Source of the DNA: Candidatus Thermosaccharophagus tengchongensis
Lineage (GTDB): Bacteria; Armatimonadota; Fervidibacteria; Fervidibacterales; Thermosaccharophagaceae
Assembly (NCBI GenBank): GCA_032161105.1
Contig: JAVHTD010000001.1
Reading direction: 5' to 3' (one strand)
Length of the DNA stretch: 64,000 nucleotides
Position 1 is the stretch's first letter. The number at the start of each line of letters is the position of its first letter. The notes under the pieces are model-generated. The model made no database searches. It was not told the origin of the DNA and saw nothing but the letters and a program-made list of their open reading frames with translations. This document shows positions 1,376-33,866 of the stretch, piece after piece. The translations under genes were made by a program, and so were the position numbers.

Positions 1376-3313
1376 GTGGCGATGGTTAGCGCAAGGACAA
1401 CATGTGGCTTTTGTGGGTGCGGTTGTGGCTTATATGTGTTGAGCGACGGCGATGGCGTCATCGGTGTAATACCGAGTGAGGCTGATGTGGTTGGCGAGGG
1501 CAGGTTGTGTATTCGTGGATGGCATATATATCAGCCGCTCAGGGACACGGATAGGATTTTGCGAGCCATCGTCTCGCTCAACGGATCCAAGCGTGAAGCG
1601 GATTACAAAGATGCAGTTTCGCGTGCTGCTGAGGCGCTCAAAAAATTTTCTCCGAACCAGATTGGCATCATTGCTTCGGCAACGGGCACAAATGAGGACG
1701 CATACATAGCTACAAAGTTTGCCAGAGCTGTCATTGGCACAAATAACATTGACTTCCCGGGACGCCCAAGGCTTATGCCAACGCTGATGCAGCTTGGCTC
1801 GGTTGATGAAGGCATATCAATGCCATGCACATTAAACGAGTTGGCGGATGCCGACTTGCTCTTCTGCATTGGCATCGGTGCTTCAACTCGCTACCCGCAG
1901 GTCACGGCGCGCATTTTCAAATCCGTCGTTGAGATGAAACATCTTCTGCTCATAGACACATGGCACTCGGACTTCGCGCCGTATGCATCACTGCACATCT
2001 CGCCAAAGCCGTTTTCGGATGCCGTCCTTTTGAGGGCGCTCGCCGGCATCTTGGACAGCGCTGTTAAAGTTCCATTCTCCGATGACGAGGTTAGCTCCAT
2101 AACTGGCGTAAGCTCGGAGCAACTTAGGGCGATGGGCGATTTGCTTTTGGGCGGCAAGCGTTTGGCTGCAGTTTACGATACGGCATCTCTGATGCACATG
2201 TGCTCGCCACATTGCGTTCGTGAGCTGTTGGTGTTAATCAGAGCCCTCAGGGGGAGGGGCATTGAATGGTGCGGTATTTTGCCCATGGTTGAGCGATGCA
2301 ACTCAAACGGCGCATTGCGCATGGGCATTGCGCCCATGCTCCTTCCCGGGTTGAAGAGCATAACGGATGGCGAAGCGGTGCGACGGGCATGCTCAATTTG
2401 GGGCATTGATGGCTTGCCGCAAGTGATGGGCATGAGCACATCTCAAATGCTATCGGCAGCTGTGAGCGGTGACTTGAAGGCTCTGATCATCATCGGTGAC
2501 GATTTGCTGACCGATGTCCCGGATGAGCAGCGGCTCAGGGACGCGCTCAGCAAAGTTGAGTTGCTAATTGCTATCTCGTCATACCATTCGCCGCTCACGG
2601 AGGCAGCTCGGTTCGTATTCCCGAGGTCAATTTGGGGTGAGACAGTGGGCACGCTTGTGAACACGGAGGGACGAATGCGCCGGCTCATAAGGGTTGCCGA
2701 ACCACATGGTGATGCGATGCAGGAGTGGCAAGTGCTTTGCGACCTCGCAACGGCGCTCGGCTTCAAAATGAGCTATTCAAGCAGCGATGAAGTGCTTGAT
2801 GAGTTGAAGCGTTTTGTGCCCGAATATTCTGACATTGAGCTGGACGAGGTGGGAAAGGGCACATGCCTGCTCCGTGAAAAGCCGGCGTGCGCACCAGAGA
2901 ACATCACACACGAGGAAATCGCCATACCCGAATTGCCATCTCCCTCCGATGAGTTCCCGTTGCTGCTTCTGGTTGAGCGATACTACTTGCCGTGGCATGC
3001 GGATACACTTGCGCTTCACTCGTCAACTCTTCGGCGCGAGTTCAGGCTCCGGTTTACGCCATATGTGTTCGTCAATTCGGCGCAAGGACATTCGTTTGGC
3101 TTGCGAGATGGCATGCCGGCGCTCCTAAAGACACCGCAGGGGAGTGCACGCGTGACATCAGTCTTTAACGACGCCGTCCCAGCTGGCATTGCCATACTAC
3201 CCGAGATGTTCTTTGCTCAACTGCGCCAAGCAGTCGGACAGGAAAGGGTTGACGAGCTCACTGGGGCAACCATTTACCCGGTGACAGTGGCGGCATTGGA
3301 GCGTGCAAGATAG
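1376..3313 (+). CDS. Formate dehydrogenase alpha-like / NuoG-like molybdopterin oxidoreductase family protein, apparently lacking the catalytic Cys/Sec
   Basis: N-terminal CGFCGCGC...C 4Fe-4S motif; TNEDAY..KFARAVIGTNNID and GTLVNTEGR segments typical of FdhF; active-site loop reads NNIDFPGRPRLMP instead of NNxDxCARxC/UH. Confidence 0.75.
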   Translation: MAMVSARTTCGFCGCGCGLYVLSDGDGVIGVIPSEADVVGEGRLCIRGWHIYQPLRDTDRILRAIVSLNGSKREADYKDAVSRAAEALKKFSPNQIGIIASATGTNEDAYIATKFARAVIGTNNIDFPGRPRLMPTLMQLGSVDEGISMPCTLNELADADLLFCIGIGASTRYPQVTARIFKSVVEMKHLLLIDTWHSDFAPYASLHISPKPFSDAVLLRALAGILDSAVKVPFSDDEVSSITGVSSEQLRAMGDLLLGGKRLAAVYDTASLMHMCSPHCVRELLVLIRALRGRGIEWCGILPMVERCNSNGALRMGIAPMLLPGLKSITDGEAVRRACSIWGIDGLPQVMGMSTSQMLSAAVSGDLKALIIIGDDLLTDVPDEQRLRDALSKVELLIAISSYHSPLTEAARFVFPRSIWGETVGTLVNTEGRMRRLIRVAEPHGDAMQEWQVLCDLATALGFKMSYSSSDEVLDELKRFVPEYSDIELDEVGKGTCLLREKPACAPENITHEEIAIPELPSPSDEFPLLLLVERYYLPWHADTLALHSSTLRREFRLRFTPYVFVNSAQGHSFGLRDGMPALLKTPQGSARVTSVFNDAVPAGIAILPEMFFAQLRQAVGQERVDELTGATIYPVTVAALERAR

Positions 3314-3343
3314 CAATTGATGTGCTTGTGAGGGGTGGGGAGC

Positions 3344-4432
3344 ATGTCAGGCGCATCGGCGGAGATAAGAGCAATGGTGCTCCGCAAGGAAAGGCTCAAT
3401 GATTTGCTTTGGTCAATTGAGGGTCAGTTAGCTGCGCCCATTCGCCTTGAGCATGGCGAGGTTCACTTTGCGGTCAATCCGCCAATTGAGCAAATCTTGC
3501 AGGACTCAGATTATGTGAACAGCACAATATCGCCTGTGGCACTCCTTTTCCCGCAGACCGAGATCCTCTTCAATTTCAAGCTCAATGGCAAGCCGCAAAT
3601 TGAGTTCCCAAAGGAGCCACAGCCGCTGACCATATTCGGCATACGCTCGTGTGATGTTGCGGCAATGCGTTACCTTGAGATGTTCTTCTCGCGCAAGTTC
3701 ATTGACACCCCATTCATGGAGCGAGCCAGCAGGACAACGCTGATAAGCATAGCCTGCCAGCGTCCGGGAAGCAGCTGCTTTTGCCCATGTTGTGCTGGCG
3801 GTCCATTCCTTGAGGAGGGGCATGACATTCAACTCACCGACTTTGGAGACATCTTCCTCGTTGAGGTTGGCTCACATAAGGGCGCACAGTTTGCCGATGG
3901 GCGAATGGAGTTCTTTGAGCCGGCGCCATGCGAATTGATTGAGCGGCGAAACAGGGTGGCTGAGGAGACGCTGCAGAAGTTTCAGATTGCATCGCACATG
4001 GGCACTGGTGTCCGCAAATTGACATCAAGGTCGGTTTCAGAGGAGCTTTGGAATATGATGGCAGCGAGATGCATTGAGTGTGGCGGGTGCGCATTCGTGT
4101 GCCCGCTATGCACATGCTTTGATGTAGTTGACCACAAGCTTCCGCCAGATGGTGATGGGGCAGCTCGTGGTTGGCGGGAGAGGTGTTGGGATTGCTGTCA
4201 ATTTGCCGGCTACTCAATTGAGGCAGCTGGTGTTAATCCGCGCCCGAACAAGGTGAGCAGGTTTAAGCGCCGTTTCTATCACAAGCTCAGCTACTTCTAC
4301 ATGGAGATGGATGGGCGTGTTGGGTGCGTTGGCTGTGGGAGGTGCATCCAAGTCTGCTTTGGCGTCGTTGACATGCCGGCAGTGGTGAACACGCTTAGGG
4401 AAGAGAAGCTACTTGGGGTAAGGCTGAGGTAA
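3344..4432 (+). CDS. 4Fe-4S dicluster protein, AsrA / sulfhydrogenase beta (HydB) / FlxB-like
   Basis: FGIRSCD, C..CFC, CIECGGCAFVCPLCTCFD, WDCC and CVGCGRCIQVC motifs. Confidence 0.85.
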   Translation: MSGASAEIRAMVLRKERLNDLLWSIEGQLAAPIRLEHGEVHFAVNPPIEQILQDSDYVNSTISPVALLFPQTEILFNFKLNGKPQIEFPKEPQPLTIFGIRSCDVAAMRYLEMFFSRKFIDTPFMERASRTTLISIACQRPGSSCFCPCCAGGPFLEEGHDIQLTDFGDIFLVEVGSHKGAQFADGRMEFFEPAPCELIERRNRVAEETLQKFQIASHMGTGVRKLTSRSVSEELWNMMAARCIECGGCAFVCPLCTCFDVVDHKLPPDGDGAARGWRERCWDCCQFAGYSIEAAGVNPRPNKVSRFKRRFYHKLSYFYMEMDGRVGCVGCGRCIQVCFGVVDMPAVVNTLREEKLLGVRLR

Positions 4433-4484
4433 TTTTTGCGTGTATGTTCTTCAGCCTCGTTTGCTGTGGTGAGGTGAACTCAAC

Positions 4485-5378
4485 ATGGCAATGGAAGCAC
4501 TTCAAGCGGCATGTAACGGCAAGCATCTCTACGAACCGGTGTTGGCACGCATCGTTGAGATAACCGATGAAACGCCCGATGTGAAGACATTCACGCTTGA
4601 GCTTGAATGCGGCGCAATTGAATATCGTCCCGGGCAGTTTGCCGAGGTATCTGTGTTCGGCGTCGGTGAAGCGCCATTTGGCATCTCGTCAAGTCCGACA
4701 TGGACGAAGCGGACTGGGTATATCCAAGTGACTGTGCGTGCAGTTGGGAGGGTGACTGGTGCGCTCCATCAACTTAATGTTGGCGACTATGTTGGTGTGA
4801 GGGCACCATTGGGTAATGGTTTTCCGGTTGAGCGTGCCGAGGGTAAGCGCGTGATAATCGTCGGTGGCGGAATTGGCTTGCCGCCGCTTCGCTCCCTCCT
4901 CAATTACATGTTGGATAACCGTGAACGCTTCGGGAAGATAACTCTTCTCTACGGTGCACGCACACCTGCCGATAGGGTTTACAAGCGCGAGCTTGATGAA
5001 TGGGAAAGGCGAGATGATTTGGAATACCTGGACACGGTTGATATTGCCGATGAGGAGTGGCAAAGGCTCGGCAAGCGTGTTGGCGTTGTAACGACGCTCT
5101 TTCCGATAATAGACGAGCAAAGTCCCATTGACCCGCCAAACACGATCGCCTTCATCTGTGGACCGCCAATCATGATTCATTTCGTCATCATTGAACTTGA
5201 GAAGCGCAATGTGCCAGATGAGAACATCATCTCAACGCTTGAGCGACACATGAAGTGTGGCGTTGGCAAGTGCGGTCATTGCGCCATCGGGCACAAGTAT
5301 GTTTGCACCGATGGTCCCGTTTTTTCTTGGGCTGAGATGAAAGAGCTTGAATGGATGTGCGCTGAGCCAACTGTGTAG
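4485..5378 (+). CDS. FAD/NAD(P)-binding oxidoreductase, AsrB / sulfhydrogenase gamma (HydG) / FlxA-like
   Basis: PGQF, GEAPFGISS, GGGIGLPPLRS, LYGAR, CGPPIM and the ERHMKCGVGKCGHC...VCTDGPVF 2Fe-2S motif. Confidence 0.9.
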   Translation: MAMEALQAACNGKHLYEPVLARIVEITDETPDVKTFTLELECGAIEYRPGQFAEVSVFGVGEAPFGISSSPTWTKRTGYIQVTVRAVGRVTGALHQLNVGDYVGVRAPLGNGFPVERAEGKRVIIVGGGIGLPPLRSLLNYMLDNRERFGKITLLYGARTPADRVYKRELDEWERRDDLEYLDTVDIADEEWQRLGKRVGVVTTLFPIIDEQSPIDPPNTIAFICGPPIMIHFVIIELEKRNVPDENIISTLERHMKCGVGKCGHCAIGHKYVCTDGPVFSWAEMKELEWMCAEPTV

Positions 5379-5419
5379 TGCCTTAACCTCTCAATGGCGG
5401 TGAAAAGGGTGATACGGTT

Positions 5420-5908
5420 GTGCCTGAGGAAAACCAATTGGAGGTTCTCTGTCGGGTGTTGAGGGGGAGGGTGGCTATCATCGGTATCGGAAATGAGATG
5501 CGCGGTGATGATGCGGTTGGATGTTATGTGGCTCGATGCCTTGAGGGTGTTGAAGATATGCTCGTAGTAGAGGCTGGCGATGTGCCCGAAAACTATGTTG
5601 GTCTGCTGCGCGAGTATAAACCCGAATGTGTTGTATTCATTGACGCCGTTGATGTTGGGGCTGAACCTGGCTCAATTGTCATAGCAAGTGCTGATGAGCT
5701 ACCATCTTCTGCCGTTGTGTCAACGCATGGTATGCCGTTGAAGTTGCTTTCCGATTACCTGCTCCGTGAAGTTGGCGCCAGAGTGATGCTCATTGGGATA
5801 CAAGTGCGCAGGACAGCACTTAATGCGCCGATAAGCAAAGAGGTGTGTGAGGCAGCTGAAGCGATTGTTGAGTTGATTCGCTCAGCACGATTGGCAATGA
5901 GGGCTTAA
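5420..5908 (+). CDS. hycI: Hydrogenase maturation endopeptidase, HycI-like
   Basis: GIGNEMRGDDAVG, PEN, FIDAVD and STHGMPL motifs; located inside a hydrogenase operon. Confidence 0.85.
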   Translation: MPEENQLEVLCRVLRGRVAIIGIGNEMRGDDAVGCYVARCLEGVEDMLVVEAGDVPENYVGLLREYKPECVVFIDAVDVGAEPGSIVIASADELPSSAVVSTHGMPLKLLSDYLLREVGARVMLIGIQVRRTALNAPISKEVCEAAEAIVELIRSARLAMRA

Positions 5909-5992
5909 AGCCATGACATTGAAATTGGCGATAAGCGCTTCAGACGGTGGTGAGGGAGCCTGATTTGCCCCGGTTGCAGAGGCAGGCGGGAA

Positions 5993-6967
5993 TTGGTCAG
6001 CATGATATGGGTGATTTTGCACGCAAGTTTATCGCCTGCTACGGCAACAGTAGTGCAAGTTGCCGAGAGCGGAGAAAAGCAAGTTCGCCTCTTTAAGGTG
6101 GCATCGTTTAAGGTTGACCAATTGCCAGTGCTTGCCACTCGCTTTTCCGGCGAGATGCTGATGGCGCTTACTAAGGGAGGAAAAGCATGTGCTTTGAATG
6201 TGACGGCGCGCAAGCGTGTGCGTGAGTTTAAGTGTGCGGATAAACTCATTAAAGTCGGTGCGTTCTCAGGCGATGGCAAATGGCTTGCTTGTTCCGACGA
6301 GAGCCAAGTCGTTAAAGTTTATGAGTTAGCCAGCGGTAAGGAAGTTGCAACCATAAGGGGACATGGCGGCGAGATAAGGCAAATGGCATTCTCGCCGCAT
6401 GGAGAGTTGCTCGCAATCGCTTGCGAAGGTTGTTGCAACATGGAGGGAGATACACGCCTTTGGTGGGCAAAGTCGGGCAAGCTTTTTCGCAGGTTAAGTG
6501 GTGATGCCTTTAGCGTTGCATTTCTGGGTGGCAGCAAGCTTATTGCAGTTGGCGGAAGGAATGCTGTGGCAGTTTGGGATGTGAGTGAGGGGAAGATGGT
6601 GCGGAGGTTGCAAGTTGGGTTAAAGGTGAACAACATCTGCTTCTCTGACAAGCGTGGGTTGCTGATAGCCAGCGCTGCTGATGGTGTTCGTCCATTTGAG
6701 CTTTCAAGTTGGCGCGTTAAGCCGTTGATTGAGGTAAGGCGTGCAAGTTCGCTTTCATGCTCTCCGGATGGCTCGCTGCTCGCCGTTGGCACTTACGATG
6801 GTGTCACTGTTGTGGACACCATCAGATGGAAAGCCATTCTTCGGCTCACTGAACACGGTGGTTCTTTTACATCGGTGGCATTTTCTCAAGACGGAGCATT
6901 GCTTGCAGCCGCGAATGTTGGTGGGATGGTAGTGGTGTGGAAAGTGGTGAGGCAAAAACAGCGATAA
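5993..6967 (+). CDS. WD40-repeat beta-propeller protein
   Basis: Repeated AFSxDGxxLA / GH...W[DK] units; hydrophobic N-terminus; start uncertain (5993 or 6002). Confidence 0.75.
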   Translation: MVSMIWVILHASLSPATATVVQVAESGEKQVRLFKVASFKVDQLPVLATRFSGEMLMALTKGGKACALNVTARKRVREFKCADKLIKVGAFSGDGKWLACSDESQVVKVYELASGKEVATIRGHGGEIRQMAFSPHGELLAIACEGCCNMEGDTRLWWAKSGKLFRRLSGDAFSVAFLGGSKLIAVGGRNAVAVWDVSEGKMVRRLQVGLKVNNICFSDKRGLLIASAADGVRPFELSSWRVKPLIEVRRASSLSCSPDGSLLAVGTYDGVTVVDTIRWKAILRLTEHGGSFTSVAFSQDGALLAAANVGGMVVVWKVVRQKQR

Positions 6968-6982
6968 GGTGGGTGTTCAAGT

Positions 6983-8491
6983 ATGGATAACATGGTTGTT
7001 TGGTGCATGCTCCTCATTGCCATTCCGGGTATCAGCGGGATTGTATGTGCGCTCTTGCCTGATAGGGCTTCGCGCATTGTTGCCACATTTGCGTCTCTCG
7101 CCACAGCCGGTGTTGGCTTATGGTTGATTGGCAACTATGGGTTTGAGGAAAATGTCGCGGAGTTGGGTGGCTTGGCTTGGATAACCAAGGTTGCAGGGGT
7201 AAGGGTCAACTTGTTTGGCTTCATCATTGATCCGCTAACGAGCATCATGCTATCGCTCGTTGTCGTGATTGGCTTCCTTGTCGTGCTTTATTCAACCGAC
7301 TACATTAGTTCCGGCAACAGGGAGCATCCAGTGACTAAAGGCGCATCGCGCTATTTCAGTTGGATGCTCTTATTCATCGCCTCAATGGCTGGCGTCGTCA
7401 CCTCTTCCACATTCCTTCAGCTTTTTATCTTTTGGGAGCTAACGACGCTGTGCTCATGGGCGCTCATCTCGTTTGACTATGATGATCCGGAAGCCATGCG
7501 TGCGGGCTACAAGGCGTTGTTGATGACGCATGTTGGTGGGCTGTTCTTGATGACCGCTGTCGTATTGCTCTTTGCGCACACGAGGTCGTTTGATTTTAAC
7601 GCCATGACTCGGCTCACTCCGACCATGCAAGCCACATTGATAGTGCTGATGTTCATAGGCGCTTGGGCGAAGGCTGCGCAGTTTCCATTTTACACATGGC
7701 TTCCCGATGCAATGGTTGCACCAACGCCGGTCAGCGCATATTTGCACGCTGCTGCCATGGTCAAAGCCGGAATATACTTGCCAGCAAGGGCAGTGCTTGC
7801 AGTTCGTCCATTCCTGAAAGCCTTCCAATCAACGGCTCTTGACACTGCTGGAATACTTATGGGCGCACTCTCAATCATCACGATTATCGTGGGGTGCTAC
7901 ATGTTCTTCTACCAAGACGACTTGAAACGCTTGCTCGCTTTTTCAACGATAGTTCACCTTGCGCATGTCCTGATGGAGTGGGCATGCGGTTCACTTGGTT
8001 GCTCAATATGCTATCAAAGCGGCTTAGTGCACATTATCGCTCACGGTGTTGGGAAAGGTTTGCTTTTCCTATCTGTTGGTGCGGTGGCATATGCGACCGG
8101 CACAAGGCGCATAAGTCAACTCAGTGGTGTTGGCTTAAAGATGCCGATTGTAACGGTTGGCTTTCTCATCGGTGTGCTGACCATCTCAGGTTTACCACCG
8201 TTTGCGGGCTTTTGGAGCAAGCTTTATTTTGTCGCTGGAGCAATAACGCTTGGCAGATGGGGTATACTTTTTGTCATCGTGGGTCTGGTTGATGCCATCA
8301 TACGATTTGGTTGGTTCATATGGGTAGCTCACAAAGTGTTTGCCGGCGAACCATCAGAGCCAGTCCGCAATGCCAGCGGGATTCCACTTGCTATTGGGAC
8401 AGCGGTTGTCATCATGATGCTGCTTTGTTTTGTTTCAACACCATTTGCTGTGCAAATGGCTGCAACTGCTGTTGGGCTTTGTGTTGGTTGA
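6983..8491 (+). CDS. hyfD: Hydrogenase-4 membrane subunit D-like (NuoL/MrpA antiporter family)
   Basis: Polytopic membrane protein with FWELTTLCSWALI and FYTWLPDAMVAPTPVSAYLHAAAMVK. Confidence 0.75.
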   Translation: MDNMVVWCMLLIAIPGISGIVCALLPDRASRIVATFASLATAGVGLWLIGNYGFEENVAELGGLAWITKVAGVRVNLFGFIIDPLTSIMLSLVVVIGFLVVLYSTDYISSGNREHPVTKGASRYFSWMLLFIASMAGVVTSSTFLQLFIFWELTTLCSWALISFDYDDPEAMRAGYKALLMTHVGGLFLMTAVVLLFAHTRSFDFNAMTRLTPTMQATLIVLMFIGAWAKAAQFPFYTWLPDAMVAPTPVSAYLHAAAMVKAGIYLPARAVLAVRPFLKAFQSTALDTAGILMGALSIITIIVGCYMFFYQDDLKRLLAFSTIVHLAHVLMEWACGSLGCSICYQSGLVHIIAHGVGKGLLFLSVGAVAYATGTRRISQLSGVGLKMPIVTVGFLIGVLTISGLPPFAGFWSKLYFVAGAITLGRWGILFVIVGLVDAIIRFGWFIWVAHKVFAGEPSEPVRNASGIPLAIGTAVVIMMLLCFVSTPFAVQMAATAVGLCVG

Positions 8492-8590
8492 ACATGCTCA
8501 GCAACTCCTTAAGCGATTGCTCATTTGAAGCTTTTCGGCGTCCTTGCGAGGTGGATAGCTTGCACAGGCAAAAGTGAGGTGGCAGAAGTT

Positions 8591-10651
8591 ATGCAGCTCT
8601 CCCAGGAAGGCTTTGCATTCGCTATTATGGGCGTCTTCTTCATCGGCGCGCTTGTGACGGCGGCAACTTCTTCGCTGCGCCGTTTGACGGCATGGGTGGG
8701 GTTCATTTTCACACTCGCTGGTTCGGTGCTGTGTATGATGATTGCTGTCAAAGCCTTCTATGCACCTGCGGTTGAACCTGGGCGTCCTCACCTCACCCTG
8801 CCAATCTTGAATGCATCGCTTCAGGTCCGCATTGATGCGTTGTCATCTCCCTTCTTGTTCATTATCGGTTTGCTCGGCACATGTGCTGCACTATACTCCG
8901 TTGGCTATATCACGCACGAGCGCTACAGGGAGGAGCATCTGATTCGCTATTATCCGTTTCTGATGTTCTTCCTCATGGGCATGGTTGGCACAGTAGCGAG
9001 CTGGGATATGTTTTACTTCCTCGTCTTTTGGGAACTGATGGCGCTTTCATCTTATGTGCTCATCATCTTTGAGAAGCGCGATCCAGTTGTGTTGCGTGCT
9101 GGCTTGAAATATTTTGTGATGACTCACATCGGCACAACTTGTATTGTCACTGGCGTCATCATTGTTTGGCTCTGGTGCAGGTCATTCAGCTTTGATTCAC
9201 TGAAGATCGGCATGGAAGTCCTCTCACAGGAGCGACCGAGGTTACTTCACCTTGTGCTGCTTTTGCTTTTCATTGGTTTTGCCACTAAGGCAGCTCTATT
9301 CCCATTTGGCGATTGGCTGCCAGACGCTCACCCAGCTGCTCCCTCAGCAATTTCGGCATTGCTATCTGGCGTGATGATAAAGATGGGCGTGTATGGCATG
9401 CTCCGCACATTCGTTTGGATGATGCCATACTCACCGCACCTTAGCACATGGGGATTGATTATAGCCTTCTTTGGCGCACTGACATTTGTTGTGTGCTCCA
9501 CAGCTGGCTTGTTCCAAAACGATTCAAAACGCCTATTGGCGTTCAGCAGCATGTCGCAGATAGGCTATGTATGTGTTGGAATTGGTGTTGGCGTTGGCTT
9601 TCTTCGCGTCTCGCCAGCGATAAGCGCACTCGGATTTATCGCTGGGTTGTATCATGTCCTCAATCACGCATGCATGAAAGGACTGCTCTTCCTGAATGCC
9701 GGCTCTGTTCTGATTCGCACTGGAACTCGCGACATGAACTTGCTTGGCGGCTTATGGCGCTTCATGCCAACGACGGCTCTGACAGCGCTCATTGCCTCCC
9801 TCGCTATATCCGGCATGCCGCCGCTCAACGGGTTTGTAAGCAAGTGGATGGTTTATCATGCGTCCATTATGAGCGGCTTGCAAGCTCCTGTGTATCTTGC
9901 TTTCGGCGTAGCTGCCATTTTCATCTCGGTCGTCACGCTCGCCATGTTTGCCAAATTCATGGGCGCAATCTTTATCGGGTTGCCATCAAAGCTCGTGAGC
10001 CAAATTGAGTGGCAGCTCCGTGAGGTTGATTGGACCATGACTGTATCACAAGTTGTGCTTGCGCTTATGTGCATTGCGCTTGGGCTTTTCCCCTCACATG
10101 TTGTGCCAATCCTTTACTGTGCCGTTGAAACCATGCGCCCTGAGTTTGCACCGCCAATTGATGCGCTCATCTCCGGCACACCAATCTCGCTTGGACTATG
10201 CGTTGGTGAGGGTGTCTCTGGCGTTTTTTCGCCGCTCGTTTTTGTGCTGGCACTCATGCTGTGCATGCTCATCCCATATGCCCTTTATAAGCTCTCAGGT
10301 GCTCAAGTTAGAGTTGCATCACCATGGGCATGTGGCGAGTCGCATTCGCACGATGAATTGCGATATCGCTCAAGCAGCTTTTACCTTCCGTTCCAAAGAT
10401 TCATGTCCTTTAGGATTGGTCAAAGGCGCATAACGACACTCTATCCGACATTGCCAAAGCCGAGAACTCCATGGCTGGCAAAGCTTCGCGTCGTCTTTGA
10501 TGTGGACACGCTTTACAATGCTGTCATTCGTGTCGGAGCGAGGGCGTGTGAATGGTTCAGCGCGACACATGCCGGAATCCCACAGCTTTATGTGTTGTGG
10601 ATAGTTGCCGGTGTGGTGCTCGCAATCTTGTTGCTCTTTTTGCTCTCCTAA
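8591..10651 (+). CDS. hyfB: Hydrogenase-4 subunit B / HycC-like antiporter-type membrane subunit
   Basis: FWELMALSSY, WLPDAHPAAPSAISALLSGVMIKMG, PPLNGFVSKW, WACG; GAGGTGG RBS before ATG 8591. Confidence 0.75.
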   Translation: MQLSQEGFAFAIMGVFFIGALVTAATSSLRRLTAWVGFIFTLAGSVLCMMIAVKAFYAPAVEPGRPHLTLPILNASLQVRIDALSSPFLFIIGLLGTCAALYSVGYITHERYREEHLIRYYPFLMFFLMGMVGTVASWDMFYFLVFWELMALSSYVLIIFEKRDPVVLRAGLKYFVMTHIGTTCIVTGVIIVWLWCRSFSFDSLKIGMEVLSQERPRLLHLVLLLLFIGFATKAALFPFGDWLPDAHPAAPSAISALLSGVMIKMGVYGMLRTFVWMMPYSPHLSTWGLIIAFFGALTFVVCSTAGLFQNDSKRLLAFSSMSQIGYVCVGIGVGVGFLRVSPAISALGFIAGLYHVLNHACMKGLLFLNAGSVLIRTGTRDMNLLGGLWRFMPTTALTALIASLAISGMPPLNGFVSKWMVYHASIMSGLQAPVYLAFGVAAIFISVVTLAMFAKFMGAIFIGLPSKLVSQIEWQLREVDWTMTVSQVVLALMCIALGLFPSHVVPILYCAVETMRPEFAPPIDALISGTPISLGLCVGEGVSGVFSPLVFVLALMLCMLIPYALYKLSGAQVRVASPWACGESHSHDELRYRSSSFYLPFQRFMSFRIGQRRITTLYPTLPKPRTPWLAKLRVVFDVDTLYNAVIRVGARACEWFSATHAGIPQLYVLWIVAGVVLAILLLFLLS

Positions 10652-10693
10652 TGAGCTGTGGCAGTGAAAAGCCGAGTATTGGAGGGATGCAGC

Positions 10694-12421
10694 ATGACTT
10701 CGCAGGAGCTGATCCAAAGGCTTCGTGAGGATTTGAATGGCAAGGTGATTGATTGCTGGGAGCCGAGAGATGGAAGGGTGTTTGTAAAAGTTTCACCAAG
10801 CGATATCGTGTCAGTTTGCGATTATGTCTTCAACACGCTTGGTGCACGCTACATGACCACTTGCGCAACCGATGACAGATTCCGCACAGGCAAGTTTACA
10901 GTGACTCACTTCTTCTCGCTTGACCCCGACAAGCTATTCCTGTCCATTAGGGCTGAAGTGGATCCTGAAAATCCGGTGCTCCCATCAATCACACCGCTTA
11001 TTCCGGGTGCTGATTGGGCTGAGCGTGAGCAGCAGGATTTGGTCGGAGTCAGGTTTGAGGGTCATCCAGATCCGAGGAGACTTGTGTTGCCCGATGATTT
11101 CCCGCTTGACTTGCACCCGTTGCGCAAGGATTACCCATACAACTATCGCCCGCAGCCCGATATGCGTGGCAAGGTCGCGATGAAGGAGCCGCCTGATGGA
11201 ACGACAGTGGTCGCAGTTGGACCTTTCTTTCCGGTCCTTGAGGAGCCGGCATACTTCAGGCTTTTCGTTGATGGCGAGACGGTTGTTGGCTGCGATTATC
11301 GTGGCTTTTACAATCACCGCGGCATTGAGAAGCTCGGCGACAGCAAGCTCACATTCAATCAAATTGTTTTCCTTGCCGAGCGCATATGAGGGATATGAGG
11401 CTTCATACACAGCACGGTGTGCTGTGAGGCTACAGAAAACGCTCTCGGAATAAGGGCACCAAGGCGAGCGAGATTCATCAGAAGTATTATGCTTGAGATT
11501 GAGCGAATACATAGCCATCTGCTTTGGCTTGGCATTGCGGGGCATATAATCGGCTTTGATACAGTGCTTATGCAGGCGTGGCGCATACGAGAACCAGTAA
11601 TGTGGCTTGCTGAATACATCACCGGCAATCGCAAAACATACGGCATGAACATCATTGGTGGCGTAAGGCGGGATATAACAAGGGAGAAGCATGAGCGCAT
11701 CCTTGAAGTGATGAGGCGAGTTGAGGAGGAAGTAGTGGCAATCATAAAGGCGGTTGAGGGTGACACGATGCTCCATGCAAGGCTTCGTGGCGTTGGGTAT
11801 CTTTCACCTGAGGATGCAAGGGCAATGTGCGTTGTTGGTCCGACTGCGAGGGGCTCTGGAGTCGCAATTGATGCGCGTGTTGATCATCCATACGCAGCAT
11901 ATGATGAACTTGTGCCGGAAAAGAAAGTGCATGACGAGTGCGACATATGGGCAAGGACGCTCGTGCGCCTTGAGGAAACGATGGAATCAATCAGGCTCGT
12001 TAGAGAGGGCATAAAAGCGCTTCAGGATATGCCAGAGGGCGACATAGTCATTAACATAACCGAGGATGTGCCTGAGGGTCTTGAGGGCATATCAGTTGTT
12101 GAGGCGCCACGAGGCGAGTGCATCCATTATGTCATCACGAGCGCGGAAAATAGACCGCACAGATGGCGAGTCCGTGCACCCTCATACATGAACATCCATG
12201 CGCTGCCTGTCATGTTCAAAAACACAAATGGAGGTATACCGGGCGAGCCATTCATTAACGCGAACCTTGCAGACATACCGATAATTGTTGGGAGCATTGA
12301 CCCATGCTTCTCATGCACCGAACGAGTTGAAGTGATTGATGTTAGGAACAGGCAGATGAGAGTTTTCAGGCACAGTGAATTGATTGAGCTGTGTAGGCAA
12401 GCCACAAGCCGAAATAGATAA
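10694..12421 (+). CDS. hyfG: Group 4 [NiFe]-hydrogenase large subunit (HyfG/HycE, NuoCD-like), 575 aa if two in-frame TGA codons (11387-11389, 11396-11398) are read as Sec
   Basis: ORFs 10658-11389 and 11417-12421 are in the same frame; the bridge reads AERI-TGA-GI-TGA-GFIHSTVCCEATENALG, matching HycE RVCGICGFAHS; C-terminal DPCFSCTER plus extension; GGAGG RBS at 10681. Confidence 0.88.
11399..11431 (+). promoter_or_regulatory. Putative bacterial SECIS element
   Basis: Perfect 8-bp stem CACAGCAC-GGT-GTGCTGTG (11408-11426); alternative lower-stem register GCTTCA/TGAGGC; loop starts with G and lies 17 and 26 nt after the two TGAs. Confidence 0.75.
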
Positions 12422-12459
12422 CGCAACTGGCAGCAATTTTAAAGGGGGGTGAATTAACC

Positions 12460-13026
12460 TTGGAAGGGCAAGAGATGGATGAATTCTTGAGGTTAGTGTT
12501 GGAGGGCGTTGATGTGGAAGCATTAGCAGCTGGCGATAACCGTGAACTTGAAAGGTTCAAGGCGAACATGCTTAGGGTTGGAAGGATGATTTACTCAAAG
12601 CCGCCAGCTGAGAGGGCAAGGTGGTTTTCGGCATTGAGGGCTGGCTCACTTCAGTTAATTGCTCAAATACCCATCATTACACCGATGCTGACTGCAATCC
12701 TTGAGAGCGCCACCGGGGAAGACCTTGGAAGCAAAATAGATGCCCTTGGAAGCAAAATAGACGCCCTTGGAGGAAAAATAGACGCCCTTGGAAGCAAAGT
12801 GGATGCCCTTGGAGGAAAAATAGACGCCCTTGGAAGCAAAGTGGACGCCCTTGGAGGAAAAATAGATGCCCTTGGAAGCAAAGTGGACGCCCTTGGAGGA
12901 AAAATAGACGCCCTTGGAAGGGACTTGGGCGGGAAGATGGATCAAATGTTGAGCTTGCAAAGGGAAACAATCGGCTTCCTTGCGAGGATATTGAATGTGC
13001 TTGAGGAGAGGTTGCCGCGAGCATGA
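12460..13026 (+). CDS. Heptad-repeat coiled-coil protein of unknown function
   Basis: Nine (I/V)DALG(S/G)K-type heptads; GGGGGGTGA RBS before TTG start. Confidence 0.75.
   Translation: MEGQEMDEFLRLVLEGVDVEALAAGDNRELERFKANMLRVGRMIYSKPPAERARWFSALRAGSLQLIAQIPIITPMLTAILESATGEDLGSKIDALGSKIDALGGKIDALGSKVDALGGKIDALGSKVDALGGKIDALGSKVDALGGKIDALGRDLGGKMDQMLSLQRETIGFLARILNVLEERLPRA
12736..12924 (+). repeat. Coding tandem repeat, 9 x 21 bp with 42-bp higher-order alternation
   Basis: Units such as ATAGACGCCCTTGGAAGCAAA / GTGGACGCCCTTGGAGGAAAA directly abutting, no spacers. Confidence 0.95.
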
Positions 13027-13055
13027 ATGCTCTGGCGAAAAGAGGGTGATGGATA

Positions 13056-13967
13056 ATGCTCAGGCTCTGGCTGGCTATACTCAATGTGATTGTGGTCCTA
13101 TTCTTTGCACCGCTATTTGAGGGGTTTGTCCGCAAATACATACGGGCTAATGTCGCGCATTCAAGGAGAGGTCCACTTGTCGGTGTATGGCAGCCGTTTT
13201 ATGACTTGCTAAAGCTGTTTGCGAAGGAGGACATACGGGTTGGCGGTCCACTTCAAACATTCATGCCCATGTTGTGCTTCAGTTCAATCTTGGTGGCTTC
13301 TTTGTTTTTGCCGATTGCAGGTCTTGCGCCACTTGAGGAGTATGGGGATATCATAGCTTTCGTTTACACAATAGGACTGGCTATCACGGCGCTCGCCATT
13401 ACTGCGTTGGATACAGGTTCGCCATATTCATACTCCGGTGCGATTAGGGAATTGATGCTCATGGCATTGGTTGAGCTCGTGTTCATCAGTGCCTTGCTTT
13501 GCGGTGCCGTATGCGCTCGTTCTCTGAGGTTATCCGAGATAATCCTTTGGTATCGTTCCCGGGCGTTTTCTTTCCCGATGATTTTAGCTGCGGGCACACT
13601 CTTCTTAGCCATGCTTGCTCAGTTTGGTCGCCTCCCATTTGACATACCGGAAGCAGAACAAGAGATCATGGGCGGACCGCTCATTGAAATTTCTGGACCA
13701 AGGCTTGCCCTGCTCAGATGGGCAATATGGATGCGTCAGTTTGTAAGCGCGTCGCTGTTTGCATGTGTGTTTATACCTTGGTGGACGACAGGCATACTCA
13801 TCGTTGATTTGCTCATAACGCTCATAAAGGTGTTTGTGGTGTTTGTCTTGGTCACCGTGATTGAGGTGCTCTCGCCCCGTCTTAGAGTTGATCAGGCACT
13901 CAACTTTTACCTTGGCGTTTTTCTCACATCGGCGATAGCGATTGCTATTGCCTATGTCGCGCCATAA
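13056..13967 (+). CDS. hyfC: Hydrogenase membrane subunit HyfC/HycD (NuoH family)
   Basis: SRRGP..WQPFYDLLKL, GSPYS, RLPFDIPEAEQEIMGGPLIEISG, SPRLR. Confidence 0.85.
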   Translation: MLRLWLAILNVIVVLFFAPLFEGFVRKYIRANVAHSRRGPLVGVWQPFYDLLKLFAKEDIRVGGPLQTFMPMLCFSSILVASLFLPIAGLAPLEEYGDIIAFVYTIGLAITALAITALDTGSPYSYSGAIRELMLMALVELVFISALLCGAVCARSLRLSEIILWYRSRAFSFPMILAAGTLFLAMLAQFGRLPFDIPEAEQEIMGGPLIEISGPRLALLRWAIWMRQFVSASLFACVFIPWWTTGILIVDLLITLIKVFVVFVLVTVIEVLSPRLRVDQALNFYLGVFLTSAIAIAIAYVAP

Positions 13968-14000
13968 AGCGAACCAATGGCGTTGGAGGGGGCATATCCA

Positions 14001-14510
14001 ATGATAGGGAGCAAGTTGAGGGAATTGATAATAGCAATTCGTGGTGGTGCTCCAAGACCGCTCGTTGTGACTTTGCCATATCCGCTTGGGCGAGGCGCTG
14101 AGGTCCCCGAGGGCTTTAGAGGGAAGGTTGAAGTTGATGTATCAAAGTGTGTTGGGTGTGGTGGGTGCGCGAATGTGTGCCCGCCAAGGTGCATTATTGT
14201 TGAGGACATCTCTCCGCTTTGGAGGAGAATGACAATACTGAGGGAGAGGTGCACATACTGTGCGCGCTGCCAAGAAGTGTGTCAGGAGAACGCCATAGCC
14301 CTTACGATGGAGTTTGAGCTTGCCACTGATGACCCAAACGACCTAACCGATACTTGGGAAGTCTTCATGGCAACATGTTCACGCTGTGGCAGATGCTTCA
14401 AGCCGAAAACAGCTTTGGATAAGATGATGGAAACGGGCTATAAGCCGCCAATGCAAAAGCGCTATGGTGCTGTCGCAACAGTGCCAGTTGAGTCAAGCTC
14501 GTCATCTTGA
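14001..14510 (+). CDS. hyfH: Hydrogenase 2x[4Fe-4S] subunit HyfH/HycF (NuoI family)
   Basis: TLPYP..FRGK, CVGCGGCANVCP, CTYCARCQEVC and a C-terminal CSRCG. Confidence 0.85.
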   Translation: MIGSKLRELIIAIRGGAPRPLVVTLPYPLGRGAEVPEGFRGKVEVDVSKCVGCGGCANVCPPRCIIVEDISPLWRRMTILRERCTYCARCQEVCQENAIALTMEFELATDDPNDLTDTWEVFMATCSRCGRCFKPKTALDKMMETGYKPPMQKRYGAVATVPVESSSSS

Positions 14511-14525
14511 AAGGGGTGAACTGGT

Positions 14526-15209
14526 ATGCCCTTAGCTATCCAACAGAGTGACATTTTGGCATTGCTCATGATTGCGCATCTTCTTGCATCACTTGTGGCA
14601 GCTGAGTTGCGCAACCTGCGCTCAGCCGTATGGGCTCTCATTATTCAATCCTTCCTCCTGACATGCATCATAGCCTCGTTCGCTTTCGTCTGGAACAACT
14701 ATACGCTTTTGATCTGGGCGGCTATAACCCTCGCAACGAAGGTCGTCCTTATCCCGTCAATCTTGCTCTACCACCTGCGCGTCACATCGCTCGTGACGGA
14801 GCTCCGCCCGTTGATCGGATTGAGAGCCTCAATCATATTTGGAAGCATCCTCGTCATCGTCTTCTACTGGTTGCTTCGCACATACATCTACTTCGTTGCT
14901 CCAACGCAAGCTGCATTGGTTGAGCCAGCACGCTCAAACCTCGCCATCGCATTTTGCGTTTTCTCACTCGGCGTTTATGTGCTTATCACCAGAAGGGATG
15001 TGGTTAAGGTTGTCATAGGGTTGCAGCTGCTTGAAAATGGTGCTCACTTGGCGCTCATTACACTGGCGCCAACATTGCCACCAACAACGAAGCTCGGGAT
15101 ATGGACGAATGTCGTCGTCGCAGCTTACATGCTCATTAAGCTTGCAGAGGGCATCTACAAGACGCTCGGCGTTGTTGATACTCTAACGCTCTCAGAACTT
15201 AAGCGTTAA
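14526..15209 (+). CDS. hyfE: Hydrogenase-4 membrane subunit E-like
   Basis: Hydrophobic; TKVVLIPSIL, LLENGAHL and C-terminal LSELKR typical of HyfE. Confidence 0.75.
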   Translation: MPLAIQQSDILALLMIAHLLASLVAAELRNLRSAVWALIIQSFLLTCIIASFAFVWNNYTLLIWAAITLATKVVLIPSILLYHLRVTSLVTELRPLIGLRASIIFGSILVIVFYWLLRTYIYFVAPTQAALVEPARSNLAIAFCVFSLGVYVLITRRDVVKVVIGLQLLENGAHLALITLAPTLPPTTKLGIWTNVVVAAYMLIKLAEGIYKTLGVVDTLTLSELKR

Positions 15210-15242
15210 ACGGCGCACGGCAACAGGTGAGGTGTTTTAGAC

Positions 15243-16766
15243 ATGATGGTGGAATCGTGGTTGCCCATCCTTGTCTTCGCCATCCCAACAATTTGTGGCG
15301 TCATAAGCCTTTCCTTCAGGCGTGCAAGCGCTCTCTTTCACAGCGTGATCGCCGTCCTCGGGCTTGCTGGGACATTTGCCATCTCTGTGGCAATCACAAG
15401 TGATGTGCTGCGCGGCAATGTGCTTGTCGCGCTCAATAATGCTGTTTATGCCGATGGTCTAAGTGCCTTGATGGAATTGCTCGGAAGCTGCATGGGGATG
15501 CTCGTGGCTATCTATTCAATCCGATACATCCCAATTCATGTTGCCCGCCGCCCCGATGCGCCTCAGAGGCTTAGCACATACTATGGGCTGTTGCTCCTCT
15601 TCCTTGGGATGATGAATTGGACATGCGTGACAAACAGCATTGTTTGGCTTTATGTCACGCTTGAGGCTACAACGCTTGCCACTGTCTTCCTCGTGACATT
15701 TTATTGGGAGAGGCGCTCGCTTGAAGCCGGCTACAAATATTTCATGCTTGTGACGATCGGGATCATATTTTCCCTCTTTGGTCTCGTGCTCATTTATTCA
15801 GGTGCTGTGGAGCTGCCGGAAATGCAAGGGCGTGATGTGCTCCTTATAACCGAGCTCAGCAGGATCGGGCGAAAGATACCGCGCAGCGTTGTGCTGCTTG
15901 CAAACGCGCTTCTCATTGCTGGCTTTGGAGCGAAGGCTGGGCTTGTCCCATTCCATGCATGGCTTCCGGATGCGCACGCAGAGGCACCAGCACCAATTAG
16001 CGCTTTGCTATCGGGTATCGTGATAAAGGTCGGCGCATACGCTATCGCAAGGACTGCAACAATATTTGCACCCCAGTATCCGCCTATCATAGTCTTCATT
16101 GCAATCATGGCTTCACTGAGCATGGTCGTCGGGATACTGATGGCGCTCGTCCAAGACGACATAAAGCGCATGCTTGCATACTCATCCGTAAGCCAGATTG
16201 GTTATGTTGTTGAGGGGCTTGGTCTTGGGACATACCTTGGAATTTATGGCGGTCTGTTCCACCTCGCAAACCACACCATCGTCAAGGCGCTTCTCTTCCT
16301 TTCCGCTGGTGCGATTGCGCATGTTACTGGCACAAGGAAGATGAGCGAGCTTGGTGGGCTCGTGCATCGGATGCCAGTTACAGCTGTTTGCTTCTTCATT
16401 GGCGCGCTCGCCATCGGCGGGTTGCCACCGTTTAATGTGTTCATGAGCAAGTTCACACTTTTTGCCGCTGTGGCTGATGCCGGTCTGATATGGGCTGCGG
16501 TGATAGCAGTGTTTACAGGGCTGTTAACAGTGGCGTGCTTTGTGCGTGCTGCGATGCGCATATTCTGGGGCAAGCCGTCGGAGATTACTCAGGCTGCTTT
16601 AGCGTATGCGAATGGTGGCGAAGGAAGGTTGCCTATGAGTATGGTTATCCCGATGGTCTTGCTCGCCATCTTAACGGTGGTAATCGGTCTTTATCCGGGA
16701 TTGATTCACCCGCTGTTGGATAGCGCAACAGAGTGCATTTTGAAGGTGCTTCGTGGGGCATTCTGA
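15243..16766 (+). CDS. hyfF: Hydrogenase-4 membrane subunit F-like (antiporter family)
   Basis: LEATTLAT, SLEAGYKY, KAGLVPFHAWLPDAHAEAPAPISALLS, KRMLAYSS. Confidence 0.8.
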   Translation: MMVESWLPILVFAIPTICGVISLSFRRASALFHSVIAVLGLAGTFAISVAITSDVLRGNVLVALNNAVYADGLSALMELLGSCMGMLVAIYSIRYIPIHVARRPDAPQRLSTYYGLLLLFLGMMNWTCVTNSIVWLYVTLEATTLATVFLVTFYWERRSLEAGYKYFMLVTIGIIFSLFGLVLIYSGAVELPEMQGRDVLLITELSRIGRKIPRSVVLLANALLIAGFGAKAGLVPFHAWLPDAHAEAPAPISALLSGIVIKVGAYAIARTATIFAPQYPPIIVFIAIMASLSMVVGILMALVQDDIKRMLAYSSVSQIGYVVEGLGLGTYLGIYGGLFHLANHTIVKALLFLSAGAIAHVTGTRKMSELGGLVHRMPVTAVCFFIGALAIGGLPPFNVFMSKFTLFAAVADAGLIWAAVIAVFTGLLTVACFVRAAMRIFWGKPSEITQAALAYANGGEGRLPMSMVIPMVLLAILTVVIGLYPGLIHPLLDSATECILKVLRGAF

Positions 16767-16813
16767 TTTCATCGTTTTTGTGGTGGCGCAGATTCCCCCG
16801 TGAGGTGAGCATA

Positions 16814-17329
16814 ATGGTCGGATGGTTTAGAGGGTTGTGCGAGAAGGCGTTCACGAAGGCACTTTGGGTCTTTCATGCAAACACCGGCGCATGTAACGGG
16901 TGCGACATTGAGGTCATCAATGTGCTCACCCCATATTACGATGCCGAGCGTTTTGGTATAAGGCTCGTTGGCTCACCGAGACATGCGGATGTGATCATCG
17001 TCACAGGTCCAGTTACAAGGCAATCCGCGCCAGCGCTTGAGCGGCTGATTGAAGCTGTTCCATCACCAAAGTTGATCATCGCCGTCGGCTCTTGCCCGAC
17101 TGGTGGAGGGATGTGGTTTGACTCGTATTCCACATGTGGTGGCTTAGCTAACTTCCTCAAGGACAGAGGGATCAACATACCCGTGTATTACATCCCGGGA
17201 TGCCCACCTCGTCCTGAAGCAATCCTATACGGTGTGGCATTGGCACTTGGCTTGGTTGACAAGAAGGTGGCTGGGAAGCATCTCAAGCAGGGGTTGCTCC
17301 CGCCGAAGAAGAGCAGCGATGAGCAATGA
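16814..17329 (+). CDS. hyfI: Group 4 hydrogenase small subunit HyfI/HycG (NuoB family)
   Basis: GACNGCDIE, SPRHAD, GSC, IPGCPPRPEAI; GAGGTGA RBS. Confidence 0.88.
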   Translation: MVGWFRGLCEKAFTKALWVFHANTGACNGCDIEVINVLTPYYDAERFGIRLVGSPRHADVIIVTGPVTRQSAPALERLIEAVPSPKLIIAVGSCPTGGGMWFDSYSTCGGLANFLKDRGINIPVYYIPGCPPRPEAILYGVALALGLVDKKVAGKHLKQGLLPPKKSSDEQ

Positions 17330-29437: not shown

Positions 29438-29925
29438 GCCGGCATCCATCAAATGCAAATCAGGGTGAAGCCACCGTGATGAATTTGCAAAGCCGTCTCA
29501 TGAGGAGTGTATGCTACACAGCCATCATCTTTGGTGCCTTGCTCTTTCTCCCGCTGTGCGAATTTCAGAACTGGTGGTTGCTGTTGAATTATTGCATCGG
29601 ACTGCTTATTGGCATGCTCTTTACCTATGTTACAGGAATGCAGGTCACCGAGTCAATCTTCAAATGCGGCTCAAAGTGGAGCGTGTGGTTCATCGCATTC
29701 CTCACAGTCGCAAAGTATGCCCTGCTCATCTTCGCACTTTACATGCTCGCAAGATACGATGTCATGAACCCGATCGGGTTGCTTATAGGACTTTCCGTAG
29801 CCCCGACGGTGCTTGTGCTCAAACTCATCGGGCAGAGCTATGTTGAGGGTGGGCGAAAGGCGGTTGCTTGCGATCATGCGGATCACAATGCAGCAGTGAA
29901 AATGGGTGGTGCAGATGAGGCATGA
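29434..29925 (+). CDS. atpI: ATP synthase protein I-like
   Basis: Four hydrophobic segments; lies directly before atpB; start may be 29479. Confidence 0.65.
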   Translation: MSRHPSNANQGEATVMNLQSRLMRSVCYTAIIFGALLFLPLCEFQNWWLLLNYCIGLLIGMLFTYVTGMQVTESIFKCGSKWSVWFIAFLTVAKYALLIFALYMLARYDVMNPIGLLIGLSVAPTVLVLKLIGQSYVEGGRKAVACDHADHNAAVKMGGADEA

Positions 29926-30737: not shown

Positions 30738-30763
30738 AAGATGCTTGGCGGAGGTGAGGATTG

Positions 30764-32245: not shown

Positions 32246-32269
32246 CCATGTGAAGGGAGTGATGCAGCA

Positions 32270-33847: not shown

Positions 33848-33866
33848 GCGGTGATGGCGGTGAAAT

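Follow-up and report, generated by a model that had tools for sequence, protein, structure and literature searches.

The window analyzed here is a stretch of 64,000 nucleotides (nt) from Candidatus Thermosaccharophagus tengchongensis (assembly GCA_032161105.1, contig JAVHTD010000001.1; its genome is labelled G000 below), and it carries a gene for the large subunit of a group 4 [NiFe] hydrogenase in which TGA stands at both N-terminal metal-ligand codons. The locus raises the question of whether such a gene is dead or translated throughout and, if translated, which amino acid is placed at its two UGAs. We find that the gene is functional and very likely recoded at both UGAs, and we lean with moderate confidence towards a reading in which it would encode the catalytic subunit of a UXXU-type group 4b energy-converting [NiFeSe] hydrogenase, with selenocysteine (Sec, U) at both positions. 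The elements on which the argument turns are listed below.

10694..12421, plus strand: gene for the large (catalytic) subunit of a group 4 [NiFe] hydrogenase, HycE-like, with a fused NuoC-like N-terminal domain; 575 codons through two UGAs (translation, Pfam, HycE alignment)
11387..11389, plus strand: first in-frame UGA (UGA1), codon 232, at the place of the first (terminal Ni) ligand Cys of RxCGxC (HycE alignment; TGA in four of four congeners)
11396..11398, plus strand: second in-frame UGA (UGA2), codon 235, at the place of the second (Ni-Fe bridging) ligand Cys (HycE alignment; TGA in four of four congeners)
11399..11431, plus strand: hairpin of the selenocysteine insertion sequence (SECIS) type inside the coding sequence, over the codons for G-F-I-H-S-T-V-C-C-E-A (folding, conservation)
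11416..11418, plus strand: apical loop GGU of that hairpin, in which G11416, the third base of the Thr241 ACG codon, is the conserved loop guanine reported for group 4b (PMC13582414)
12299..12316, plus strand: C-terminal Ni-binding motif DPCFSC, TGC at both Cys, then TER and 31 more residues, an extension such as a HycI-type protease removes (translation, HycE alignment)

The reading frame extends from the ATG at 10694, with a GGAGG 8 nt ahead of it, to the TAA at 12419-12421, and its only internal stops are the TGAs at 11387-11389 and 11396-11398, which on read-through translation fall within AERI-U-GI-U-GFIHSTVCCE. Pfam recognizes in the read-through protein a Complex1_30kDa (NuoC-like) domain, the N-terminal part of NiFeSe_Hases and a Complex1_49kDa (NuoD-like) domain, and the best solved relative is Escherichia coli HycE (7z0s_E), aligned with 421 bits over residues 4-564. 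In this alignment 'aeriCgiCgfihst' lies opposite 'sdrvCgiCgfahst', so that both UGAs face HycE cysteines (R-I-U-G-I-U-G against R-V-C-G-I-C-G), and DPCFSCTER lies opposite DPCYSCTDR. An earlier reading of this DNA from its letters (the original prediction) numbers the HycE ligands in question C241 and C244; the alignment confirms the pairing, not the numbers. By its domains and motifs, the gene product is a HycE-like large subunit of a group 4 [NiFe] hydrogenase, and its provisional assignment to subgroup 4b is taken from the placement of Armatimonadota UXXU sequences in PMC13582414 together with the gene content of the locus. The original prediction had described a single frame broken only by TGA 11387 and TGA 11396, giving U232 and U235 as counted from the ATG, ordinary cysteines in DPCFSC, an otherwise intact operon and a gene that standard annotation would split. 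Our translation, the TGC codons at both C-terminal positions and Pfam analysis of 16 open reading frames (ORFs) agree with it, and translation table 11 indeed cuts the gene into two ORFs, at 10658-11389 (243 residues) and 11417-12421 (334 residues).

Could the gene simply be dead, with two nonsense mutations leaving pieces of 231 and 334 residues? The two ORFs obtained under table 11 are compatible with this, as is the presence of such pieces as separate short proteins in public protein sets, but comparison with relatives makes the proposal very improbable. Across the four species of the genus (G000 and the congeners G001-G003, at 89% protein identity), TGA is found at both ligand codons in every species, whereas 16 orthologues from the same order or phylum, at 52-60% identity, are without a stop and have TGC or TGT at both positions in all 15 that were read. 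CXXC orthologues of 57-60% identity are found within the order. Between G000 and G002, 95 synonymous and 29 non-synonymous codon differences are seen in the 231 codons upstream of the UGAs, and 130 and 36, respectively, in the 340 codons downstream. The synonymous excess appears on both sides of the UGAs in all six congener pairs, at about 3 to 4 times downstream, and we therefore conclude that translation goes on past both UGAs. The gene has no other stops or frameshifts and its operon is intact; moreover, TGA is found at exactly these codons in 50 loci from several phyla. When the 231-residue N-terminal piece was searched against a set of 5.8 billion proteins, 2059 short proteins matched, and among the best 120 clusters of these, 78 terminate directly ahead of the first ligand codon, 36 directly ahead of the second and 6 elsewhere, so that 114 end exactly at a ligand codon. 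Other matches with in-frame stops in relatives (those read in G005, G018, G008, G021, G039 and G011) lack the Ni-binding motif and were set aside as NuoD-like genes or gene boundaries.

Even less credible are sequencing or assembly errors, or a genome in which TGA is a sense codon throughout (a code resembling 4 or 25), for which the bare presence of in-frame TGAs is all that speaks. Both TGAs are present in contigs from four of four metagenome runs belonging to four hot-spring studies, at depths of 22-830; the four listed differences between these contigs and the window all fall outside 11387-11398, and the assemblies of the three other species agree. At least half of the sampled words of the gene are found in 15 sequencing runs, with contig depth up to about 830; the run search listed no RNA runs carrying the gene. 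As to the genetic code, TGA is the commonest true stop of the genome, ending 471 of the 818 ORFs of at least 400 codons, and a reassigned code is therefore excluded; within the hydrogenase gene, TGA occurs at the two ligand codons only.

The region that spans the UGAs and the upper stem of the hairpin behind them is the most invariant of the gene. Over the four species, 154 of 560 aligned codons are letter-identical, and codons 231-244, which extend from the UGAs through the upper stem of the hairpin, hold a single change and form the sole window with at most one variable codon among 547 windows of 14 codons. The hairpin is composed of a lower stem (11399-11405 paired with 11425-11431), a 5' bulge UACA and an upper stem (11410-11415 paired with 11419-11424, extendable to 11408-11426), and it folds with a minimum free energy of -21.9 kcal/mol (z -3.37), matched by 1 of 200 shuffles. 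Its GGU loop supplies the guanine at the first or second place that is expected in bacterial SECIS loops. Among the congeners, G003 has two lower-stem changes, both of which preserve pairing (C-G to U-G and U-G to U-A), and G001 and G002 have one change, which opens the terminal pair only. We extended the comparison with a cross-phylum pattern scan on one genome per species, which returned 87 stretches; the 80 that were fetched comprise 50 hydrogenase loci spanning several phyla (12 UXXU, 38 CXXU) and 30 chance matches, and the resulting hairpin alignment holds 46 distinct sequences plus the window, or 47 rows. The upper stem is common to 45 of the 47 rows, at the same place in CXXU and UXXU genes alike. 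In the two remaining rows (L095 and L100, labelled Acidobacteriota, both CXXU) a different hairpin lies in a shifted register, which a count over fixed columns scores as unpaired. An Armatimonadota clade (three of the 47 rows) features a compensatory U-A to C-G change, the 3' half of which costs a Tyr-to-Cys replacement (HSTVCC against HSTxYC). In the 15 orthologues of the Cys type, only 2-3 of the 8 pairs can form, and the Ser codon within the stem is a TCN, not an AGY codon. At the level of sequence, these comparisons establish that the UGAs are conserved and under selection, that translation continues past them and that a conserved hairpin specific to Sec-type genes follows them. The original prediction had called two random nonsense mutations unlikely and had noted a SECIS-like hairpin adjoining the UGAs; the retention of both TGAs in all four congeners with selection on either side, and the z score and invariance of the hairpin, bear this out. 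Most of the checks that it proposed were likewise positive, with TGA in the four congeners alternating with TGC or TGT in the 15 orthologues read, an upper stem conserved in nearly all rows and agreement on both TGAs among contigs of the four runs and studies.

A single hairpin following two UGAs poses a problem of distance. UGA2 is separated from the upper stem by 11 nt, and in the minimal E. coli SECIS of Liu et al. 1998 the distance between the UGA and the minimal stem-loop is reportedly also 11 nt. About 11 nt are, moreover, occluded by the ribosome (PMC4513850), which equals the distance between UGA2 and the upper stem. Counted from the U of the UGA, the apical loop lies at +21 to +23 for UGA2, at +22 to +24 for the UGA of the selD gene of the same genome and at +24 to +26 for that of a rhodanese-like gene described below. 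The geometry of UGA2 is canonical, and with this spacing Sec is very likely the residue at 235, as judged from the gene and its hairpin. UGA1 lies 9 nt further upstream of the hairpin, and since the position of the hairpin does not differ between CXXU and UXXU genes, UGA1 gives the impression of having been added to a signal of the CXXU type. An extra C-G pair at the base of the upper stem, which 11 of the 13 UXXU rows have and the 32 CXXU rows with this hairpin all lack, fits a hairpin adapted to work from two distances; as these rows represent few clades, the pair is only suggestive. We infer that the single hairpin serves both codons, and Sec is the probable residue at 232 as well.

The G000 assembly (97.4% complete, 44 contigs) supplies much of the machinery that such decoding would call upon. 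It encodes a tRNA-Sec (75.9 bits; called SeC(tca) by ARAGORN), one copy of SelB (413.5 bits) and SelD (366.3 bits; G000 C5:91187-92119, minus strand, locus L014), the latter with an in-frame UGA of its own at the position known to hold Sec or Cys (MVRASG-U-ASKW) and, behind it, a hairpin whose loop is GGU. A further likely selenoprotein gene, on the evidence of its domain, is the rhodanese-like ORF at G000 C3:43490-44059 (locus L159), whose Pfam rhodanese domain (residues 89-174) spans a UGA at residue 144 (L159:430-432, IVVYCAGGS-U-PHS). An 8-base-pair (bp) hairpin with a GGA loop follows at +24, in a region that folds no better than shuffled sequences (z -0.17). On gene content, then, other genes of the organism too have UGA decoded as Sec or as a residue like it. 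A genome-wide selenoprotein screen for coding potential on both sides of TGA yielded 23 candidates when the threshold was strict and 1153 when it was loose, and a hairpin filter left 100; the screen is blind to UGAs within 20 codons of a stop and for this reason misses both selD and the hydrogenase. Ten of the 100 candidates were checked against Pfam, five with at least 200 codons on both sides and five shorter ones with a loop starting in GG. No Pfam domain extends across the TGA in any of the five long candidates, which were accordingly read as pairs of neighbouring genes, and among the five short ones only the rhodanese-like gene has a UGA-spanning domain, the other four being without a Pfam hit.

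Several observations weigh against Sec at both positions. The covariation of the hairpin is thin, with only two of eight pairs changed on both sides, in five cells, and one of these two pairs (A-U to U-G, two rows) stems from the shifted-register rows; it is thin because the element is nearly invariant, and we treat it as supporting evidence, not as proof. The loop lies at +30 to +32 from UGA1, outside the +21 to +26 of the three other UGAs of the genome. Searches with TIGR00474, PF03841 and, by tblastn, the SelA of G002 found no selA in the G000 assembly; SepSecS was not found in G000 either, nor selA in the congener G001. Among the relatives, G002 and G003 do have selA, as do 24 of 27 others. 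In these two congeners the contig that carries it is short, 10,063 bases in G002 (C62, L054) and 3,355 bases in G003 (C21, L055), which makes loss in binning a likely cause of the gap in G000 and hints that the region is hard to assemble or bin in this genus. The neighbourhood of selA in G002 offers no usable synteny anchor in G000, where one neighbour matches at 63% and another at only 30%. Finally, all four congeners encode, at 93% identity, a long tRNA-Cys(GCA) that resembles tRNA-Sec, and tRNAs of this kind can put Cys at a UGA next to a SECIS (PMC13582414, citing Vargas-Rodriguez 2018).

In G000 this tRNA-Cys(GCA) is 92 nt long (C10:44437-44528, loci L003/L056), scores 46.7 bits on the tRNA-Sec model, for which the cut-off is 47, and features U73, an 8-bp variable arm and a 5-bp D stem with a 4-nt loop. 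Its acceptor and T stems are of the 7/5 type according to both ARAGORN and RNAalifold, with A at position 8 opposite G, and an 8-bp acceptor (8/4) is not formed. Between two genera, 9 of its 32 pairs are changed on both sides, and it is therefore a functional gene. It is embedded in an ordinary tRNA cluster (Lys, Arg, Cys-long, His, Arg, Gly, Pro) and no second selB or cysS lies beside it; the distance to the tRNA-His gene is about 800 nt in G000 and G003, the two being adjacent in G001 and G002. Long tRNA-Cys(GCA) genes like it were also seen in 4 of 20 genomes of the order in which the enzyme is of the Cys type or an orthologue is lacking. Set beside selC*/tRNA-ReC (Mukai et al. 2017, as given in PMC7609411), it shares U73, the GCA anticodon, the long variable arm and the Sec-like D arm, and differs in its 7/5 instead of 8/4 fold and in having neither a second selB nor cysS as neighbour.

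Such a tRNA opens the possibility that both UGAs are recoded but that Cys is placed at one or both of them, by a tRNA-Cys(GCA) of the selC*/tRNA-ReC kind charged by cysteinyl-tRNA synthetase (CysRS) and acting at a SECIS-marked UGA. In that case the mature enzyme would be of the CXXU or even the CXXC type, or else a mixture whose proportions follow selenium supply, with UGA1 the likelier Cys site. The Sec-like features of this working gene, U73 included, its retention in the four congeners, the two of four congener assemblies in which selA was not found and the position of UGA1, 9 nt outside the spacing range of the other UGAs, are all in keeping with this explanation. So are the tRNA-ReC-like tRNAs of PMC13582414, which that paper reports in five of five Armatimonadota genomes of the UXXU type and, overall, in about 56% of genomes with a UXXU enzyme, compared with about 2.3% of the other Sec-type genomes; it also voices the same caveat. 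Yet the GCA anticodon mismatches the A of UGA, and the 7/5 fold takes the place of the 8-bp acceptor stem, which is the main SelB determinant (review PMC7609411). The long tRNA-Cys is not tied to UXXU enzymes, since it is found in the same-order genomes without them. Were Cys the product, a UGC or UGU codon would serve equally at no cost, and a canonical tRNA-Sec, SelB and SelD are all kept. On balance we hold Cys insertion to be a serious, though less likely, explanation. A further variant, in which the UGAs are not equivalent, UGA2 being constitutively Sec and UGA1 contested by Sec-tRNA(Sec) and the tRNA-Sec-like Cys-tRNA(GCA), strikes us as more tentative still and rather unlikely; if it held, selenium supply would decide whether the terminal Ni ligand is Se or S, making a tunable site instead of a fixed double-Se one. 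What the original prediction had offered as a candidate double-selenocysteine enzyme thus stands as far as recoding at both UGAs is concerned, while Sec at both is left as one reading beside Cys, given the missing selA and the tRNA-Sec-like tRNA-Cys(GCA). The search for Sec machinery that it had suggested was likewise answered in part, by tRNA-Sec, SelB and SelD but not by selA.

The reading with Sec at both positions suggests the following sequence of events. Both in-frame UGAs would be read as sense codons during translation, with SelB, bound to the single hairpin directly after UGA2, delivering Sec-tRNA(Sec) to UGA1 and, three codons later, to UGA2. When UGA1 is served, the whole hairpin would still be outside the ribosome, 9 nt further off. 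A full-length precursor of 575 residues would be made and then trimmed by HycI after DPCFSCTER, resulting in a Ni-Fe site in which both N-terminal ligands, the terminal one (232) and the bridging one (235), are Se.

The genes that would accompany such a subunit are in place. The hydrogenase cluster at 1376-17329 is intact by Pfam analysis of the 16 ORFs, and the Complex-I-like partners (small subunit, NuoH-like, NuoI-like and antiporter-like subunits) are all present by the same analysis. Besides the large subunit, the cluster holds the following genes.

1376..3313, plus strand: formate dehydrogenase-like (Fdh-like) molybdopterin subunit without the catalytic Cys/Sec-His pair, R-L instead (Pfam, alignment)
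3335..4432, plus strand: iron-sulfur subunit (Fer4_22), sulfhydrogenase-beta-like partner (Pfam; PMC13582414)
4485..5378, plus strand: FAD/NAD(P)-binding subunit with a DHODB-type Fe-S domain, sulfhydrogenase-gamma-like (Pfam; PMC13582414)
5420..5908, plus strand: HycI-type hydrogenase maturation endopeptidase (Pfam)
5993..6967, plus strand: WD40 beta-propeller protein of 324 residues, within the cluster (Pfam)
6983..8491, plus strand: antiporter-like membrane subunit, Proton_antipo_M (Pfam)
8525..10651, plus strand: antiporter-like membrane subunit, Proton_antipo_M (Pfam)
12460..13026, plus strand: 188-residue ORF between the large subunit and the NuoH-like gene; weak Pfam hits of coiled-coil type, below the cut-off (ORF, Pfam)
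13056..13967, plus strand: NuoH/HyfC-like membrane subunit (Pfam)
13977..14510, plus strand: 2x[4Fe-4S] ferredoxin-like subunit, HycF/NuoI-like (Pfam)
14526..15209, plus strand: NuoK/HyfE-like membrane subunit (Pfam)
15243..16766, plus strand: antiporter-like membrane subunit, Proton_antipo_M (Pfam)
16733..17329, plus strand: small subunit, NuoB/HycG-like, Oxidored_q6 (Pfam)

In the Fdh-like protein, R-L lies opposite the Cys-His of FdhF and the Sec-His of an F420-dependent enzyme, and the subunit encoded at 1376-3313 is therefore probably not a formate dehydrogenase. For the arrangement of an Fdh-like subunit with an Fe-S subunit and an FAD/NAD(P) flavoprotein, electron bifurcation has been suggested (PMC13582414). 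It is unusual to find a WD40 gene in an operon of this kind, here placed between those for the HycI protease and the first antiporter-like subunit. The large subunits of G001 and G002 have a C-terminal tail 22 residues longer than that of the window. Further along the window, about 12 kb downstream of the hydrogenase cluster, lies an F-type ATP synthase operon (a, b, delta, alpha, gamma, beta) at 29922-36186, and the remainder consists of housekeeping genes.

The enzyme class itself is already in print, as a prediction from sequence. UXXU-type group 4b [NiFeSe] hydrogenases, Armatimonadota included, were described in September 2026 by Takano, Inoue, Aono, Ochi and Mihara (Front Microbiol 2026;17:1925269, PMC13582414), to whom the discovery belongs; they propose one SECIS for both UGAs, with the explicit caveat that UGA may be read as Cys, identify the loop guanine as the third base of a Thr ACG codon and report Fdh-like partners without Cys/Sec beside sulfhydrogenase beta and gamma homologues. 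The view of the original prediction that an enzyme with two Se ligands was unknown among those described is thereby superseded. The contribution of the present analysis beyond that paper is incremental. It consists of evidence for synonymous constraint and selection among the four congeners, the compensatory pair confined to one clade, the spacing of UGAs and hairpins compared inside one genome, the 7/5 fold predicted for the long tRNA-Cys, the gap at selA and the breadth of the phenomenon. Regarding the last, the genome survey of PMC13582414 covers 47 sequences, and with 114 of the best 120 clusters of short proteins ending at ligand codons, such variants are therefore far commoner than that number. 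Public proteins of the 'Ni,Fe-hydrogenase III component G' type with 231-237 residues (P0122-P0241) are, in 114 of the best 120 cases, large-subunit genes cut at a UGA ligand codon.

Annotation thus routinely splits the gene. If both residues are Sec, the enzyme would have a natural [NiFe] site with two Se ligands, one of them bridging Ni and Fe. We know of no hydrogenase with two Se ligands that has been purified. An enzyme of this kind would test how Se tunes H2 production and O2 sensitivity, and its gene would show whether a single bacterial SECIS is enough for two UGAs that lie nine nucleotides apart. Native proteomics is realistic, given how abundant the organism is in metagenomes of hot springs.

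Among known systems, the UXXU type of PMC13582414 is the closest. As in that type, the two N-terminal ligand codons of the window gene are UGA (AERI-U-GI-U-G) and its C-terminal motif has Cys; a single hairpin follows UGA2, with the ACG loop guanine and the core common to CXXU types. Also shared are a formate-hydrogenlyase-like cluster with antiporter-like subunits, an Fdh-like subunit without Cys/Sec together with sulfhydrogenase beta/gamma-like genes (one of two cluster types in that paper), a tRNA-ReC-like tRNA, the phylum Armatimonadota and a hot-spring habitat, to which the names of the nearest full-length homologues point as well. We see no difference of substance from that UXXU set, and the window represents a member or close relative of its Armatimonadota members. 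E. coli HycE (PDB 7Z0S/7Z0T) has the same fusion of NuoC-like and NuoD-like domains, RxCGxC and DPCxSCT(D/E)R motifs, a C-terminal extension, HycI and NuoB-, NuoH- and NuoI-like partners; unlike the window gene, it has Cys codons at all four ligands, and the FdhH with which it works carries out catalysis with Sec, where the Fdh-like protein of the window shows R-L. The window cluster includes in addition three antiporter-like subunits, an NAD(P)-type flavoprotein module and the WD40 protein. In the classical [NiFeSe] enzymes of groups 1 and 3 (Desulfovibrio/Desulfomicrobium Hys, Methanococcus Vhu/Fru; PMC13582414), a UGA-encoded Sec likewise replaces a Ni-ligand Cys, but it is a single one, at the first Cys of the C-terminal motif (a terminal ligand), while here the C-terminal motif has Cys and both N-terminal ligand codons, one of them for a bridging ligand, are UGA. 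Finally, Cys-to-Sec engineering of E. coli Hyd-1 has shown that Sec can be placed at each of the four [NiFe] ligand positions (Evans et al., PNAS 2021, PMC8020662); those are artificial single substitutions in a group 1 enzyme, and the present gene would hold a natural double one in group 4.

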